Source: a virus (taxonomy: Duplodnaviria > Heunggongvirae > Uroviricota > Caudoviricetes). Taken from it: DNA of 5,817 nt. Each line of letters begins with the position of its first letter. Position 1 is the first letter of the stretch. Shown here piece by piece: positions 1 through 5,401 of this stretch. The stretch lies in the IMG/VR virus record IMGVR_UViG_2713896784_000022; one strand, 5' to 3'. The notes below the pieces were generated by a model, which saw only the letters and a program-made list of their open reading frames with translations, ran no database searches and was not told where the DNA came from. The position numbers were made by a program, and so were the translations under genes.

Positions 1-269
1 GCCACCAGCAGAGGCGGCATTGCCTTTTCGATCGCCGGTAACAGAGCCTGCATTTTTTCAACTGCATCAGGGGTGTCTTTCTCTATCCAGCGGAAAATTT
101 TCTGGGTATTGCGAGCCAGGGCTTCCGGATGGCTGTCGTCGTACAGTTCAGGAAACGTCATACCCAACTCAAAATAAGCCTGGGTTATTCCAGCTGCCGG
201 AACTTTTTCGCCATCAGGACGCGCCCAGGCATTCATCGCCATGCGGATGTGTTCATGCTTGATTTTCAT
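1..269 (-). CDS. Prophage early protein downstream of cro (YdaT/CII-like family, tentative); 3' end cut by window edge
   Basis: Minus-strand ATG at 269 preceded by a purine-rich AAGGGGGGA run (273-281). My own translation is open for all 89 codons to the window edge (MKIKHEHIRMAMNAWARPDGEKVPAAGITQAYFELGMTFPELYDDSHPEALARNTQKIFRWIEKDTPDAVEKMQALLPAIEKAMPPLLV...). Absent from the ORF track only because no stop lies inside the window. Co-directional with the cro-like gene and overlapping it by 17 nt. Family name is from memory of Rac YdaT-like proteins, not verified. Confidence 0.6.
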   Translation of the reverse strand, partial: MKIKHEHIRMAMNAWARPDGEKVPAAGITQAYFELGMTFPELYDDSHPEALARNTQKIFRWIEKDTPDAVEKMQALLPAIEKAMPPLLV

Positions 270-495
270 GAATCCCCCCTTGGTTAGAAGGCGGATTATG
301 ATCAGAATCGGGAATGACAACCGTCGGTATGTGTAACTCATATTTGAGCGCCCCGGCAGTGACTGCCTGAATTAGCAACGCCCATTTCCACGGAACGTCT
401 TCCCCCCACATGCTGACTGTGGTTTTTGACGTTCCTAGAGCGGCGGCTGTTTTAACAACTCCGCCAAAATAGCCTAATACTTCTGATTTTTTCAT
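253..495 (-). CDS. Cro/DicC-like small HTH regulator (80 aa)
   Basis: ORF-track frame 253..543 (minus), trimmed to the ATG at 495, which has a GGAG Shine-Dalgarno about 7 nt upstream (revcomp of 504-507). Product MKKSEVLGYFGGVVKTAAALGTSKTTVSMWGEDVPWKW... has the Cro/YdaS/DicC-type pattern (LG.S...VS.W). Divergent from the repressor gene, as in lambdoid immunity regions. Confidence 0.7.
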   Translation of the reverse strand: MKKSEVLGYFGGVVKTAAALGTSKTTVSMWGEDVPWKWALLIQAVTAGALKYELHIPTVVIPDSDHNPPSNQGGIHENQA

Positions 496-586
496 GAGTC
501 GCTCCATAAAACTGAACGCCAAAAGTTTAATAATCAAAACCAAAGAAAGTCAAGAAACAAAACCATCTGTGTTTTAAAATCAAAAC
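496..586. promoter_or_regulatory. Divergent immunity-region promoter/operator interval between cro-like and cI-like genes
   Basis: 91-bp AT-rich spacer between divergent starts (495 minus, 587 plus). Contains a 20-bp palindrome GTGTTTT-AAAATC-AAAACAT at 569-588 that overlaps the cI start codon, a -10-like TAAAAT at 575-580, and repeated AAAAC half-site motifs. No Shine-Dalgarno precedes ATG 587. Confidence 0.6.
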
Positions 587-1225
587 ATGAACAAGCAAAC
601 AATATCTGAACGCATAACCCAACGTATGCATGCGCTAAACTTGAAAGGCAAAGACCTTGTCAATGCCACTGGCGCATCAAAAGGCTCCGTAAGTCAATGG
701 ATGAACGGTGGAGGAGCGCCGTCCTCGCGTTACATAAGTTCACTGGCAAAGATATTGAAAGTAAACGAAAATTGGCTTCTTAATGGAGGAGAGTTAAATA
801 CAGGTGATTCGCTTGATCTATCTTTACCGCCGATAAAAACGGTTCCGCTACTATCACTTCAGCAGGCAGCAAGCTGGAGTGATTATATGAAAAATTCCTC
901 AATAACCTCTTGTGTGCAGCTTGTCGGAGAAATCCCGGCCAATACCTTTGCTGTTGTTCTAGAGAGTGACAGTATGTCGACATCTGGTGGTGGAGTTTCC
1001 ATCCCAAATGGTTCAACAGTTTTTGTTGATCCCGATCGAATCGTACAACCAGGAAATATTGTCCTTGCCTTACCCAAAGGGACCACAACGCCTGTCATTC
1101 GCAAACTGGAGATAGAAGGGCCGGATATTCTTTTAGTCCCCACGAATCCTCGCTACCCTTCAATTATGCTGGATGATCTATCTTGCATATTGGGAGTATG
1201 CTTTAAAATTCAACAAGATATTTAA
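587..1225 (+). CDS. CI-type prophage repressor: N-terminal XRE-family HTH plus C-terminal S24 (LexA-like) self-cleaving peptidase domain (212 aa)
   Basis: ORF-track 587..1225. N-terminus (ISERITQRMHALNLKGKDLVNATGASKGSVSQWMNGG) is a typical HTH_XRE segment. C-terminus carries the S24 signature serine in ESDSM and a downstream lysine (VIRKLE), consistent with the LexA/CI Ser-Lys dyad. No obvious Ala-Gly cleavage site seen in the linker. Confidence 0.85.
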   Translation: MNKQTISERITQRMHALNLKGKDLVNATGASKGSVSQWMNGGGAPSSRYISSLAKILKVNENWLLNGGELNTGDSLDLSLPPIKTVPLLSLQQAASWSDYMKNSSITSCVQLVGEIPANTFAVVLESDSMSTSGGGVSIPNGSTVFVDPDRIVQPGNIVLALPKGTTTPVIRKLEIEGPDILLVPTNPRYPSIMLDDLSCILGVCFKIQQDI

Positions 1226-1290: not shown

Positions 1291-1338
1291 ATGTTTTGAT
1301 AAAAAAACATTGACCTTAAATGTTCGTTTTTCTAAACT
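1291..1338 (+). promoter_or_regulatory. Candidate sigma70 promoter with overlapping operator palindrome upstream of the 1518/1670 operon
   Basis: Perfect palindrome ATGTTTT-GATAAA-AAAACAT at 1291-1310, abutting TTGACC (1310-1315, -35-like), a 17-nt spacer, and TAAACT (1333-1338, -10-like). An A-tract lies upstream. The half-sites are the same as those of the 569-588 palindrome. Confidence 0.4.
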
Positions 1339-1517: not shown

Positions 1518-1670
1518 ATGGATACGCTCAATCTTGGCAACAACGAATCTCTGGTATGTGGCGTGTTCCCCAACCAGGACGGTACGTTCACCGCGATGAC
1601 GTATACCAAAAGCAAAACGTTTAAAACTGAAGCTGGCGCGCGTCGCTGGTTAGCCAGAAACACTGACTGA
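1518..1670 (+). CDS. Small prophage protein, DUF1391-like (YdfA/YdaF-type), 50 aa; alternative start at 1437 would give 77 aa
   Basis: ORF-track 1437..1670. Internal ATG at 1518 has GAGG (1509-1512) 5 nt upstream and gives a 50-aa product (MDTLNLGNNESLVCGVFPNQDGTFTAMTYTKSKTFKTEAGARRWLARNTD), close to the ~51 aa of K-12 YdfA. First small gene after the repressor, as ydfA is after dicA. Family assignment is from memory and position, not from a search. Confidence 0.5.
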   Translation: MDTLNLGNNESLVCGVFPNQDGTFTAMTYTKSKTFKTEAGARRWLARNTD

Positions 1671-2320
1671 TGAGGTTGACGATGGAATTTAAAGATTTAC
1701 CTCCTTCAATCCAGGAGATTGCAGCACACACACTTCGTCATCGTCTGAACGAACTTGAATTGGAATCGGTAACGAAAAAAGACACTGATAATATGGCTCG
1801 TAATGTGCGCGATGCGTTTACCGGATTGTATTTCTGTGCGTCTATAAATAAACACGACTCAGAGAGTGTGGCAAATAAAATTGCAGAAACGACAGCGCAA
1901 AACATCAATACGAAACCAACGGAAGAAGAAATTGATCAGTTTGCTCATGATGCTGGTTTAAAAAACAAGAAAGAAAAATCGCCATATGCGGGGAACATGT
2001 TTGTTTATGACAATCTCATCAGAATTCGTGGCGAAATTCCGGCGGAATACCTGGCAAGAGTCCATCAGGCATTGCTTAAAAATTTGGAAACAGAATTATT
2101 TGATGGCAACACTAACGGTTTCTTCATGGTATCAGGCCTTGAGAAAGACTGGGATGCAGAAAAACGCTGGAATGTTGCTACATGGTTATTCAGTAACAGA
2201 GCCGCTGCACTGGAAGCTTCGGCATGTATTTGCGGCCTGTTCTTAACAGACCACAAATATAATCTGGATGTGTACAGTTATATTTACGCTGAACACGGTC
2301 CACTCTGGATTGACTGGTAA
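1670..2320 (+). CDS. Hypothetical protein, 216 aa (212 aa if started at ATG 1682); no recognisable domain
   Basis: ORF-track 1670..2320. ATG at 1670 overlaps the upstream stop (TGATG, translational coupling). Alternative ATG at 1682 has GAGG (1672-1675) 6 nt upstream. No transmembrane segment or motif I can name. Long uninterrupted frame with non-repetitive composition. Confidence 0.65.
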   Translation: MRLTMEFKDLPPSIQEIAAHTLRHRLNELELESVTKKDTDNMARNVRDAFTGLYFCASINKHDSESVANKIAETTAQNINTKPTEEEIDQFAHDAGLKNKKEKSPYAGNMFVYDNLIRIRGEIPAEYLARVHQALLKNLETELFDGNTNGFFMVSGLEKDWDAEKRWNVATWLFSNRAAALEASACICGLFLTDHKYNLDVYSYIYAEHGPLWIDW

Positions 2321-2530
2321 TTATAAGGAAACACCAGCAGGGCCGCGGCGACCAACAGAACGATTAAAATCAATAATGCCATTATAAAGGACATTATTTA
2401 ATTTATCGTCGAATGCTGATTCTGTGAGCCTCAACTCTGAATGAGTTTTTAATAACCCTGATTGCCTGAGTTGATTTACCAGGCATTCAATCTGTTTTTC
2501 AATAAGCGGATTTCTTTTTTTGTTTGGCAT
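2321..2530 (-). CDS. Hypothetical small protein, 69 aa (MPNKKRNPLIEKQIECLVNQLRQSGLL...)
   Basis: ORF-track 2321..2542 (minus). Second ATG at 2530 is preceded by GGAGG with 5-nt spacing (revcomp of 2536-2540), so 2530 is the likelier start. Its stop codon abuts the stop of the convergent 216-aa ORF (2318-2320 / 2321-2323). Confidence 0.5.
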   Translation of the reverse strand: MPNKKRNPLIEKQIECLVNQLRQSGLLKTHSELRLTESAFDDKLNNVLYNGIIDFNRSVGRRGPAGVSL

Positions 2531-2856
2531 TTTATCCTCCATTGAGGTTCTGGGTTAAAAATGGAGACCAACACGCTGTCACGTGTGGTCGTGCGCCGGA
2601 CACGGATAAGAATCCGGTACTGACAGTTTACTGAAAGGATATTTCCCTGAAAAGTCAGTGCATAACGCGAAAGCGTACGGCGAAGCTCTTTCCCTTAGAA
2701 GGCTTGTCGTTAGATTTCTTCGAACGTGCGCTTCCGGTTGTGGCACTCCGCGAAATGGCGCGGCGGTAAGTATGGCGGGGTTATTCCTTCCCCATTGAGG
2801 ACACCGGGTTGTCAGGTTGACCATACGCTTAAGTGACAACCCCGCTGCAACGCCCT

Positions 2857-2906
2857 NNNNNNNNNNNNNNNNNNNNNNNNNNNNNNNNNNNNNNNNNNNN
2901 NNNNNN
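2857..2906. other. Assembly gap (50 N), flanked on both sides by the identical 13-mer GCTGCAACGCCCT
   Basis: Run of 50 N at 2857-2906. The 13 nt at 2844-2856 are identical to the 13 nt at 2907-2919. Confidence 0.95.
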
Positions 2907-2930
2907 GCTGCAACGCCCTCTGTTATCAAT

Positions 2931-2988
2931 TTTCTGGTGACGTTTGGCGGTATCAGTTTTACTCCGTGGCTGCTCTGCCGCCCTTTTT
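2931..2988 (+). ncRNA. dicF: DicF-like antisense sRNA (ftsZ translation inhibitor of Qin/dic-type prophages)
   Basis: TTTCTGGTGACGTTTGGCGGTATCAGTTTTACTCCGTGGCTGCTCTGCCGCCCTTTTT matches my memory of E. coli DicF nearly base-for-base (one or two differences). It ends in a GGCGG...CCGCC stem plus U-run and sits about 170 bp upstream of a DicB-like gene, as in the K-12 dicB operon. The exact 5' end (RNase E processing site) cannot be read from sequence. Confidence 0.7.
2946..2988 (+). terminator. Rho-independent terminator forming the 3' end of DicF
   Basis: GGCGG (2946-2950) pairs with CCGCC (2978-2982), followed by C and TTTTT (2984-2988). The loop is large (27 nt), consistent with the DicF structure rather than a minimal terminator. 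Confidence 0.55.
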
Positions 2989-3157
2989 AAAGTGAATTTT
3001 GTGATGCGGTGAATGCGGCTAAGCGCACGCGGAACAGTTAAAACCAAAAACAGTGTTATGGGTGGATTCTCTGTATCCGGCGTTAATTGTTAACTGGTTA
3101 ACGTCACCTGGAGGCACCAGGCACTGCATCACAAAATTCATTGTTGAGGACGCGATA

Positions 3158-3346
3158 ATGGAAACGTTATTACCAAACGTTAATACGTCTGAAGGTTGTT
3201 TTGATATTGGTGTTCTGCTCAGTAACCGGGAGTTTACTGAAGATGCCATTAACATGAGGAAATATGAGCCTTATCTGCTCAATGATAATTCCATACTTTC
3301 CCGAATTGCTCTTCTTGAACTTGGTATTTTCGGAGAACGTCAATGA
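3158..3346 (+). CDS. dicB: DicB-like cell division inhibitor (62 aa)
   Basis: ORF-track frame 3053..3346 trimmed to ATG 3158, which has GAGGA (3145-3149) 8 nt upstream. Product METLLPNVNTSEGCFDIGVLLSNREFTEDAINMRKYEPYLLND... matches the N-terminal half of K-12 DicB as I remember it (MKTLLPNVNTSEGCFEIGV...TEDAIN.RK); the C-terminal half diverges. Same length as DicB (62 aa) and same position after dicF. Confidence 0.7.
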   Translation: METLLPNVNTSEGCFDIGVLLSNREFTEDAINMRKYEPYLLNDNSILSRIALLELGIFGERQ

Positions 3347-3531
3347 CTTCAGCATTTGCACTGATGATGACGGTTTTTCTTATAACGGGTGAATCACAGA
3401 ATGTGATTACCGGAATTTATGCCAGTAAAGAATCCTGCCTCCAGGCAAGAGACGAGCAAAAAATTTCTGGTGAATGCCTCCCGGTAAAAAAAGTATCGCT
3501 GTACCTGAATAACGAAACACCGGCTGGATAA
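3343..3531 (+). CDS. Small protein with hydrophobic N-terminal segment (62 aa); occupies the position of YdfD (Qin lysis protein)
   Basis: ORF-track 3343..3531. ATG overlaps the dicB-like stop (ATGA, coupled translation). N-terminus MTSAFALMMTVFLITG is hydrophobic (signal or membrane-anchor-like) and is followed by a polar, Cys-containing tail. YdfD identity is positional inference only. Confidence 0.55.
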   Translation: MTSAFALMMTVFLITGESQNVITGIYASKESCLQARDEQKISGECLPVKKVSLYLNNETPAG

Positions 3532-3623
3532 CCCTCCAGCCATATTAACACCATACCAACGGATTAAAAATGCCAGCAATGGCAGGGATTTGTTCACCCT
3601 TAAATCTGTAATGAGGTTTATCA

Positions 3624-4868
3624 ATGAGCACTGATAAAGAAGAATTTGCGCTATATTGCGAAGCAAAAAATGACAAAGTCAGAAAACGTCTGGGAATTAA
3701 AGGTGGTTTTTACTGGACTACAGCAAAAAAATTATCTGTTGCCATCTCCCGCTGCATTACCGCAATGGATGACAACGATTATGATGAAGACGACTTTAAA
3801 AAACCCGTTCGCGTCCATTTACCCGTTGTGAATGACCTTCCACCTGAAGGCGTGTTTGATACCGAATTCTGCAACCGATACGAAAAAGGCGGGGAAGATG
3901 GCATTACAATGGTATTTATCGCGCCCTCTCCCTCCGTGCAGGAGAAACCAGCCAGTACTGACAATACCAACGTCAACGGCGAAGACATGACGGAGATTGA
4001 GGAGAATATGCTCCTGCCGGTTTCTGGTCAGGAGCTGCCCATTCGCTGGCTTGCGCAACACGGCAGCGAAAAACCAGTAACGCACGTTGCACGGGAAGAA
4101 CTTCAGGCATTACATATAGCACGGGCGGAAGAACTGCCGGCTGTTACTGCCCTGGCCATTTCTCACAAAACAAAGCTGCTCGACCCGCTGGAGATTCGCG
4201 ACCTTCACAAACTGGTACGCGACACTGACAAAGTTTTCCCTAATCCCGGTAATTCAGACCTGGGACTGATAACTGCTTTTTTCGAGGCATACCTGGACGC
4301 TGACTACACTGATCGGGGTCTGCTGACAAAAGAGTGGATGAAAGGAAATCGTGTTTCGCGTATCACCCGTACGGCTTCCGGTGCAAATGCCGGTGGCGGG
4401 AACAAAACCGATCGCAATCCGAATTTAGTACACACCTTCGATACGCTGGATGTGGAGATTGCAGCAGCCACACTTCCGATGGATTTTAATATTTATGAAA
4501 TTCCGGGCAGCGTTTATCGTCGCGCAAAAGAAATCGTCCTGAAAAGAGAAAGTCCGTTCAAAGAATGGTCCGCAGCACTTCGCGCAACCCCGGGTATTCT
4601 GGACTATTCCCGCGCCGCTATTTTTGCACTTATCCGGAGCGCTCACCCTGAGTTTTATCACTACCCGGGACGCCTTCAGGGGTATATCAACGCCTACTTA
4701 ACGGAGACTGATCACGAGAACCCCAGCAAGGAAACTCTCACTGCTGCACGACATACACCGGAAAAAGATATCCTGGAAGAAGTTAACCGCGAACTGTCTG
4801 CTAAGCAGGAAACAGAAGAAGAAAATGATGAAGAAAAACCGCAACCATCTTGCGCAATGGCAGAATGA
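3624..4868 (+). CDS. Hypothetical acidic protein, 414 aa, unknown function (position corresponds to ydfE of the K-12 Qin locus)
   Basis: ORF-track 3624..4868. GAGG about 7 nt upstream of the ATG. Acidic clusters near the N-terminus (DDNDYDEDDF) and at the C-terminal tail (ETEEENDEEKPQP). No integrase, nuclease or NTPase motif recognised. Its stop lies 16 nt inside the integrase-remnant frame. Confidence 0.7.
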   Translation: MSTDKEEFALYCEAKNDKVRKRLGIKGGFYWTTAKKLSVAISRCITAMDDNDYDEDDFKKPVRVHLPVVNDLPPEGVFDTEFCNRYEKGGEDGITMVFIAPSPSVQEKPASTDNTNVNGEDMTEIEENMLLPVSGQELPIRWLAQHGSEKPVTHVAREELQALHIARAEELPAVTALAISHKTKLLDPLEIRDLHKLVRDTDKVFPNPGNSDLGLITAFFEAYLDADYTDRGLLTKEWMKGNRVSRITRTASGANAGGGNKTDRNPNLVHTFDTLDVEIAAATLPMDFNIYEIPGSVYRRAKEIVLKRESPFKEWSAALRATPGILDYSRAAIFALIRSAHPEFYHYPGRLQGYINAYLTETDHENPSKETLTAARHTPEKDILEEVNRELSAKQETEEENDEEKPQPSCAMAE

Positions 4869-5401
4869 TAATCAGAAGAAATCTGGCAAAAGACCGTTTT
4901 ACAGTACCAAAAACACAGGCGGGAACCAATCGTGTGATTCACCTTATTAAGCCCGCAATCGACGCTCTCCGGAGTCAGATGGCACTAACGAGACTGAGCA
5001 AAGAGCATATCATCGATGTTCACCTCAGAGAATTCGGCAGAACAGAGAAACAAAAATGTACCTTTGTTTTTCAACCTGAAGTGTCAGCGAAAGTAAAAAA
5101 TTATGGCGACCATTTTACCGTTGACTCAATAAGGCAGATGTGGGACGCAGCGGTAAAGCGTGCCGGAATCCGCCATCGCAAATCGTATCAGTCGAGACAC
5201 ACTTATGCCTGCTGGTCGTTAACAGCAGGAGCTAACCCGGCATTCATTGCAAACCAGATGGGCCATGCAGATGCGCAAATGGTGTTTCAGGTGTACGGGA
5301 AATGGATGTCAGAAAATAATAATGCGCAGGTAACGCTGTTAAATACACAGTTAAGCGAGTTTGCCCCAACCATGCCCCATAACGAAGCGATGAAAAGTTA
5401 A
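4850..5401 (+). pseudogene. Truncated tyrosine recombinase (phage integrase) C-terminal catalytic fragment
   Basis: ORF-track 4850..5401 (TTG start; in-frame stop at 4829-4831). Retains the beta-hairpin lysine context (VPKTQAGTNRVIHL), the box II motif SRHTYACWSLTAGANPAFIANQMGHADAQ, and the nucleophile tyrosine (VFQVYGKWM). The N-terminal arm/core-binding domains and the box I arginine (TGxR) are absent. The integrase frame is closed 7 codons upstream of 4850 and the preceding sequence encodes the unrelated 414-aa ORF in another frame. Confidence 0.65.

Follow-up and report, generated by a model that had tools for sequence, protein, structure and literature searches.

Which gene fills the slot between the DUF1391 gene and dicF in a dic-type prophage, and what might it do there? 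This question is raised by a 5,817-nucleotide (nt) stretch of viral DNA (IMG/VR record IMGVR_UViG_2713896784_000022), referred to here, at its full length, as the window. Working from the letters alone, the original prediction had singled out an open reading frame (ORF) of 216 amino acids (aa) in this slot as a candidate accessory or defence gene of unknown type. It omitted a convergent gene for a 69-aa protein and the leader of that gene, which are the most informative parts of the locus. Taking both into account, the ORF is a functional gene within the early operon of a lambdoid, dic/Qin-type prophage that is defective, and its C-terminal domain (CTD) and the small gene are inherited together. 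We tentatively propose that the two proteins form a cognate antagonistic pair with opposite expression programmes. The ORF is already known as an annotated hypothetical protein in hundreds of genomes, whereas the literature searched holds no description of the surrounding architecture.

Co-inheritance of the CTD and a convergent small gene

The features on which the argument rests are the following.

1682..2320, + strand: 212-aa ORF (WP_000394548.1; phrog_2151; 'Ybl81' in some records), from the open frame, the profile match, RefSeq and purifying selection
2321..2530, - strand: convergent 69-aa gene (WP_001133037.1; phrog_4274), abutting the ORF stop, from RefSeq, the profile match and homologues at CTD genes
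1682..1915, + strand: N-terminal helical module (N-module), aa 1-78 (core 1-55, MEFKDLPxxIQxxAA...NVRDAFTGLY), from N-only cluster representatives
1967..2317, + strand: C-terminal alpha/beta domain (the CTD), aa ~96-212, with motifs P-[YF]-x3-M-[FY]-[VI]-Y and FDGxxNGxF, from distant relatives and AlphaFold
1672..1675, + strand: Shine-Dalgarno (SD) sequence GAGG, 6 nt 5' of ATG 1682 in a conserved junction, from the sequence

The stop codons of the two genes abut, the ORF ending at 2320 and the small gene at 2321, and a scan of the window found no terminator-like site between them. The small gene carries GGAGG 5 nt before its ATG, and its product matches phrog_4274 over the full length (E 1.4e-51). 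When 23 loci were compared by tblastn, the small gene was present wherever the CTD was present and missing at six Salmonella loci in which the N-module is shared but the C-termini differ. All CTD loci found in IMG/VR have the same small ORF type. Conversely, a homologue search from the small protein listed 50 relatives, all from Escherichia or Salmonella where a source was named, and in both genomic contexts that were looked at, those of P0322 and P0329, the gene faces a convergent CTD gene. On each Salmonella CTD gene, a 64-aa gene converges with an overlap of 11-53 nt, its product being 42-55% identical to the 69-aa protein; here, the backbone consists of integrase, helix-turn-helix (HTH) repressor and Cox, followed by the CTD gene, as in a P2/186-type switch. 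Co-inheritance therefore spans two unrelated backbones, the dic-type operon and the integrase/repressor/Cox switch type. A 581-nt query spanning CTD and small gene was run against 5426 complete E. coli genomes and matched 600 of them, with at least 80% query coverage in 594; of the 600 genomes with either gene, these 594 have both. The small protein had no tblastn match in 50,697 phage records or 72,556 plasmids, and a single Bacteroidota match from a scan of genome contigs was set aside as chance, as it lies inside a 394-aa protein. According to these comparisons, the CTD and the small gene are co-inherited as a cassette across backbones and genera.

The forward frame predicted at 1670-2320 (+ strand, 216 aa) is open, and its ratio of nonsynonymous to synonymous substitutions (dN/dS) of 0.17-0.30, measured against alleles at a dS of 0.3-0.6, marks it as a real coding gene. 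With a dN/dS of 0.15-0.25 for the small gene, both genes are under purifying selection. Translation of the ORF most likely starts at ATG 1682, giving 212 aa, because RefSeq annotates WP_000394548.1 from there in a genome 100% identical over 1300-2600, because the full phrog_2151 profile is matched without the first four residues of the 216-aa frame (residues 5-216 against positions 1-212 of 212, E 1.9e-147), because MEFKDLP opens essentially all homologues, because a GAGG precedes this ATG by 6 nt, and because the same junction, read as '..RLTME', stands before several different genes at related loci (L018, L040, L079 and others). The SD-ATG pair at 1682, noted originally as an internal start, thus holds, while the TGATG overlap at 1668-1672, from which translational coupling to the DUF1391 gene had been deduced, is probably incidental. 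Since only 11 nt separate the end of that gene (1670) from ATG 1682, coupling by proximity is still plausible.

The ORF belongs to no characterised family, as had been supposed: it has no match in Pfam, NCBIfam or PADLOC and no sequence relative in the PDB, and is a full-length member of phrog_2151. PHROGs carries no functional annotation for either phrog_2151 or phrog_4274, nor does it record the module structure and the linkage of the two families. The products of the ORF, the small gene and the DUF1391 gene had no match at E <= 1 among the hidden Markov models of PADLOC-DB v2; with no known defence system matched, the proposed role as a defence gene stays a guess. For the small protein, there was no Pfam family at E <= 0.1, SieB included, and no predicted membrane segment. 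A word-indexed search of 5.8 billion proteins yielded 153 relatives of the ORF product, of which the best 120 are at least 65% identical and, where a source is named, come from Escherichia and in one case Salmonella. Cluster look-ups gave only the names 'hypothetical protein' or 'Ybl81', and literature searches for Ybl81 and both WP accessions returned nothing. Two apparent leads were dropped: a marginal PDB profile match of the N-terminal helices to the nucleoid occlusion protein Noc (E 0.047), which was gone with a broader alignment, and a suspected 'IPxxY...NG' resemblance to SMI1/SUKH-like proteins, which had no Pfam support.

We then resolved the module structure of the ORF by an exhaustive HMMER profile search of 1.84 billion cluster representatives (50% identity). 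The 53 matched proteins comprised one full-length cluster, ~40 representatives with the N-module only and two Salmonella clusters with the CTD only. The N-only representatives, 42-201 aa in size, match from residue 1 to ~55-90 and are wholly divergent thereafter; the CTD-only clusters, P0141 and P0153, match residues ~74-194 and are the sole distant relatives of the CTD in this set. These two kinds of partial match show that the ORF is a fusion: a helical N-module of wide distribution, with further matches to phrog_1363, 9419, 6937 and 33007, is joined to an almost orphan CTD, the two being separate genes elsewhere. In loci L018-L020, the CTD is indeed a separate gene of ~125 aa and the E. coli-type N-module its own gene further along; gene callers missed the stand-alone CTD gene in all three. 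Apart from the E. coli fusion, the CTD is confined to Salmonella prophages. Where it is not a gene of its own there, another N-module, MFNVKRNG..., precedes it, and some of these proteins have an HTH_3 domain (PF01381) inserted, which is missing from P0153, P0177 and all E. coli members. Three N-terminal arrangements thus occur before the CTD: the E. coli N-module, MFNVKRNG with or without HTH_3, and none. In addition, P0188 and P0225 from Salmonella fuse the MFNVKRNG module to the E. coli-type N-module, and together with the variable arrangements these fusions suggest that the modules shuffle freely. The original prediction had allowed for a fused pair of ydfB and ydfC homologues. It is not that pair, as BLASTP gave no alignment of the ORF with K-12 YdfB (42 aa) and only E 3.9 with YdfC (72 aa), yet it is a fusion of two modules.

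The search for the CTD by tblastn gave no match in 72,556 plasmids, and the 50,697 phage records gave matches to the N-module only, mainly in Shiga toxin (Stx)-converting phages. In one of these, the Stx2a phage F765 (L003, 5001-5444), the N-module is part of a 147-aa protein deep in the early-left region; this protein is annotated as 'NinB homolog', which looks like a mis-annotation, and the locus has neither the leader motif described below nor a convergent small gene. AlphaFold, run on a 36-sequence alignment, reached a mean predicted local distance difference test score (pLDDT) of 68, with 73-85 over most of the CTD, after a single-sequence run had proved unusable (mean pLDDT 39). The model has four helices (N-module: 8-24, 32-55, 60-73), followed in the CTD by a beta-hairpin, alpha, beta, beta, alpha, beta. 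Fold searches gave generic ferredoxin-like matches only, a fold (beta-alpha-beta-beta-alpha-beta) that ACT/RAM-like regulatory domains also have, and sequence searches found no match to a regulator family.

Predicted control of the pair and the slot around it

Upstream of the small gene, a structured leader and a boundary box can be delineated.

2531..2625, - strand: structured leader of the small gene with three hairpins, from folding, conservation and covariation
2595-2618, - strand: hairpin 1 of the leader (core GTGTCCGGCGCAC at 2591-2603), predicted fold
2566-2590, - strand: hairpin 2 of the leader, predicted fold
2537-2566, - strand: hairpin 3 of the leader, CTCCAT pairing with ATGGAG and covering the SD GGAGG at 2536-2540, predicted fold
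2661..2677, unstranded: conserved box, right-hand boundary of the slot (minus strand: CGCTTTCGCGTTATG), common to K-12 Qin, Salmonella loci and Rac upstream of sieB

Between E. coli and Salmonella, the non-coding DNA upstream of the small gene is more conserved than its coding sequence. Across 23 distinct leaders, 85% of the cells are paired, as compared to at most 46% for slid controls. Seven pairs have changed on both sides, and the covariation score of 0.199 (0.079 in shuffles) was reached by none of 500 shuffles. On this basis, the SD of the small gene appears to be sequestered by a conserved, covarying leader hairpin. Hairpin 2 occurs with at least four unrelated stem sequences, and the 13-nt core GTGTCCGGCRCAC is found in 21 of the 23 loci, including K-12 Qin downstream of ydfC and Salmonella loci lacking the CTD. 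The hairpins are thus not specific to this small gene, the core motif occurring in loci without it. The three-hairpin leader has no Rfam family; an Rfam E-value search of 2250-3000 found only DicF besides a sub-threshold anti-hemB match taken as chance. A promoter-like site at 2558-2529 (minus strand) was discounted, as it overlaps the start codon of the small gene.

The ORF lies behind a second set of elements.

1518..1670, + strand: DUF1391 (YdfA/YdaF-type) gene, the first of the operon, from Pfam PF07151 (E 1.2e-29) and the RefSeq coding sequence in an identical genome
1310..1338, + strand: promoter-like site of the early (dicBF-type) operon, TTGACC, 17-nt spacer, TAAACT, from a consensus scan (9/12 matches)
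1292..1310, unstranded: operator-like 19-nt near-palindrome TGTTTTGATAAAAAAACAT, abutting the -35 element of the early promoter, from repeat families D1 and I1

Related copies of the near-palindrome are located at 570-588 and 524-542, in the cro/repressor intergenic region. Because the predicted promoter abuts a palindrome that recurs at cro/repressor, the ORF would be under a repressor-controlled early promoter, in agreement with the operator-guarded promoter first proposed. The promoter-like site corresponds in position to the DicA-repressed dicBF promoter of Qin (PMC5069750). As both operator-like site and promoter lie between the repressor gene (587-1225) and the operon, the ORF would be part of a repressed early (dicBF-type, pL-like) operon. 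The same arrangement speaks against the suggested equivalence to the rexAB position of lambda: the ORF should be expressed on derepression and silent in the lysogen.

Two IMG/VR scans, together with a script, revealed that the leader precedes ~16 types of small ORF (57-99 aa), each converging on a forward gene that usually has the N-module start and a variable end. So many small-ORF types behind one leader indicate that the slot is hypervariable between constant flanks, namely the SD junction and N-module on the left and the structured leader and boundary box on the right. In prophages of both E. coli and Salmonella, a large number of gene pairs unrelated to one another lie between these flanks, which bears out the idea of a variable cargo position. 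The CTD with its A-type small gene is one allele of this slot. Among the other alleles, locus L099 encodes at 265-549 (minus strand) a 94-aa small ORF (MAKFTVRIELRD...) whose score of 21.2 bits barely passes the Pfam cut-off (21) for GhoS, the endoribonuclease that serves as a type V antitoxin; the forward gene opposite this ORF is a 51-aa, free-standing form of another C-terminal module. When ten alternative small ORFs were compared to PADLOC-DB v2, the sole match was BrxA (E 0.024). Locus L018 carries two complete units of forward gene, convergent small gene and leader in tandem (3476-4627), which shows that duplication or insertion of the whole unit can take place.

The gene order of the window, as assigned by Pfam and Rfam, is cro, CI-like repressor, DUF1391, 212-aa ORF, DicF (2932-2983, Rfam, 75 bits), dicB and DUF1482. 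It parallels K-12 Qin (ydfA-ydfB-ydfC-dicF-dicB-ydfD), as originally proposed, in the succession of repressor, DUF1391, slot, DicF, dicB and DUF1482, and Qin also has hairpins 1 and 2 and the boundary box downstream of ydfC. In contrast, the Qin slot is filled by ydfB and ydfC, which have indeed been replaced in the window by an unrelated gene; the convergent small gene and the SD hairpin are both missing from Qin, and its repressor is DicA, whereas that of the window is of the CI/LexA type with an S24 domain.

A further parallel is found in K-12 Rac, in which racR, ydaG and ydaF (DUF1391) are followed by the convergent sieB; in locus L264, sieB (2672-3160, plus strand) overlaps ydaF (3157-3312, minus strand) by 4 nt. 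Like sieB, the small gene is a convergent gene directly following the DUF1391-led forward genes, at their 3' end, and a conserved box (ATGCGCYTTCGYGTTRTG) is located upstream of both. The Rac box (L264 2548-2572, TGCGCCTTCGTGTTGTG) bounds the slot also in Qin, the window and the Salmonella loci, and it stands upstream of the leader at all loci of the present comparison. It is the small gene with its leader, not the ORF, that occupies the sieB position of Rac. The shared box and convergent position suggest one ancestral slot common to Rac and dic-type prophages, and with sieB, at least one relative has an exclusion gene known to be expressed from the prophage at this convergent position. The likeness is one of position, however: SieB has no sequence similarity to the 69-aa protein, Rac lacks the three-hairpin leader, and the ORF has no Rac counterpart. 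In sieB/esc, an exclusion gene is coupled to the phage's own escape function. In contrast to the present locus, the Esc of lambda and P22 is an internal in-frame product of sieB, with no separate convergent gene.

Toxin-antitoxin and effector-immunity systems, such as polymorphic toxins and GhoS/GhoT, offer a third comparison. Here, too, a constant N-terminus is joined to a swappable C-terminus, a small neighbour co-travels, and hypervariable alleles sit inside constant flanks, with one alternative small ORF marginally matching GhoS. The differences are that the present genes are convergent rather than co-directional and that the pairing is not strict in all alleles. The locus also departs from type II toxin-antitoxin systems in its convergent genes, with no HTH, ribbon-helix-helix or AbrB match in either protein.

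How the pair may work, and other readings

Under the antagonistic pairing that we tentatively favour, the minus strand would supply the small protein as long as repression of the prophage lasts, with the leader hairpin over the SD keeping translation low. The ORF would be made only once the CI-like repressor leaves the early promoter. As the 3' ends abut or overlap without a terminator, each transcript would run antisense into the other gene, and we propose that this read-through renders their expression mutually exclusive. The CTD would bind and neutralise the small protein, or vice versa. The pair would thereby resemble an exclusion gene with its own escape function, following sieB/esc logic, or a toxin with its antidote.

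Several observations weigh against this proposal. Co-inheritance could reflect adjacency alone. Neither protein matches toxin, antitoxin, immunity or defence families in Pfam, NCBIfam and PADLOC, and the fold matches are generically ferredoxin-like. Pairing is strict for the CTD allele and looser in some others, one forward type ('..KLKHIIALLLEDAK..') being found with either of two small ORFs. In strain A19, an exception among the E. coli genomes, the ORF is intact though the small gene has an internal deletion; such a loss could be tolerated only by virtue of tight repression or of an ORF product that does no harm. K-12 Qin retains hairpins 1 and 2 without the small gene, and part of the leader may therefore have another role. 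Finally, a consensus scan finds no promoter upstream of the leader, conservation there being limited to a -10-like element; that the lysogen expresses the small gene is thus an assumption.

The main rival, possible though somewhat doubtful in our view, is that the two genes are independent cargo, the ORF encoding a self-contained early accessory protein, for example for host takeover or anti-defence, and the small gene being an unrelated moron expressed in the lysogen. Such a role would fit the other products of the operon, as DicF, DicB and the lysis protein YdfD are host-directed (PMC5069750), and a promoter-proximal hypervariable slot suits arms-race genes. That A19 retains the ORF alone, and that in other alleles the small ORF is swapped with most of the forward gene unchanged, points in the same direction. 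What independent cargo does not readily explain is that the CTD has kept the A-type small gene as its neighbour through divergence to 38% and ~50% identity, respectively, a period that saw three changes of N-module and a change of prophage backbone. Given that the small gene is replaceable in other alleles, its retention beside the CTD suggests selection.

Alternatively, the CTD may be an ACT/RAM-like oligomerisation or ligand-binding domain and the ORF a CII- or antirepressor-like protein acting on the switch or on early transcription, with the small protein as its modulator. The Salmonella relatives lend this some appeal, as they have HTH_3 inserted between N-module and CTD and directly follow Cox in a P2/186-type switch, and phage 186 carries cII directly after the Cox position. 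We nevertheless consider a regulatory role unlikely: the HTH is optional, the CTD shows a generic fold and no sequence match to a regulator family, and a hypervariable C-terminus would be unusual in a core switch regulator. Less probable still is an exclusion or abortive-infection gene expressed in the lysogen in the manner of rexAB. Whereas the variable slot adjoining the immunity region would suit such a gene, the ORF is downstream of an operator-guarded early promoter and should be silent in a lysogen, PADLOC gave no match, and the sieB-like orientation belongs to the convergent small gene. That the ORF is a decaying, functionless in-frame fusion is very improbable, for although the prophage is defective and truncated or pseudogene copies exist (a pseudogene in ETEC1718; frameshifted P0121 and P0122), the selection signal argues against decay, as do the 212-aa architecture kept across alleles 67-100% identical with two N-module variants and the presence in 600 of the 5426 genomes.

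About one in nine complete E. coli genomes thus has the gene pair, including O157:H7, O121, O145, O111 and O103, and the pair sits in a dicBF-type operon, the products of which act on cell division, metabolism and phage resistance. If the antagonistic pairing is correct, be it of the exclusion/escape or of the toxin/antidote kind, genes for conflict among phages or between phage and host would have a new hotspot in this slot, the conserved leader and N-module would provide a ready search handle for it, and a whole set of small prophage proteins would share the SD-sequestering leader as an element of translational control. More speculatively, and with a low probability in our estimate, the leader and its ~16 interchangeable small ORFs could constitute an unrecognised hypervariable locus of enterobacterial prophage early operons, comprising lysogen-expressed exclusion or toxin families, each with a cognate early-lytic escape or antidote partner, with the CTD and the 69-aa protein as one new two-protein system. 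Even if the pairing is incidental, it still holds that mobile modules are fused in the 212-aa protein and that the dicBF slot, for which the literature has only the term 'non-conserved genes', has a defined architecture.

The prophage around the locus

Positions 1300-2600 of the window are found at 100% identity in the chromosomes of E. coli O157:H7, O121 and related strains, where they are prophage DNA. In strain TR01, the annotation runs leftward through a Cro/CI-family regulator, YdaT, a DnaT-like protein and replication protein P, and rightward through a LexA-family protein, DUF1391, the 212-aa and the opposite-strand 69-aa hypothetical proteins, dicB and DUF1482, followed by truncated RecE, an integrase fragment, a DinI-like protein and then insertion sequence (IS) elements. 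The window derives from a lambdoid prophage of the dic/Qin type, which is classed as defective because RecE is truncated and the integrase fragmentary. The RecE gene of the window (3624-4868) encodes 414 aa and covers only the first ~400 of the 883 positions of the phrog_607 profile. It is followed by a 183-aa integrase fragment at 4850-5401 and by a DinI-like gene running past the right window end. In Salmonella loci and E. coli A19, a C4 antisense RNA and IsrK are located downstream of the slot, beside Phage_ASH or Derepression-domain genes (loci surveyed: L004, L006, L009, L012, L015, L018, L021), and DicF was not detected in Salmonella loci, A19 or ETEC1718 (L016).

A run of 50 N at 2857-2906 of the window is bracketed by a duplicated 13-mer, GCTGCAACGCCCT (2844-2856 and 2907-2919). 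Since TR01 reads continuously at this place (...CCCCGCTGCAACGCCCTCTGTT...), the window holds a 63-base artificial insert or mask there and no real gap. The repressor ORF at 587-1225 (+ strand) is intact and encodes a CI/LexA-type protein of 212 aa with HTH_3 at 17-64 and Peptidase_S24 at 113-197, of which RefSeq annotates only the C-terminal 112 aa in TR01 (equivalent to window 887-1225). Because this repressor is unlike DicA of Qin, the dic-type operon of the window may be SOS-inducible.

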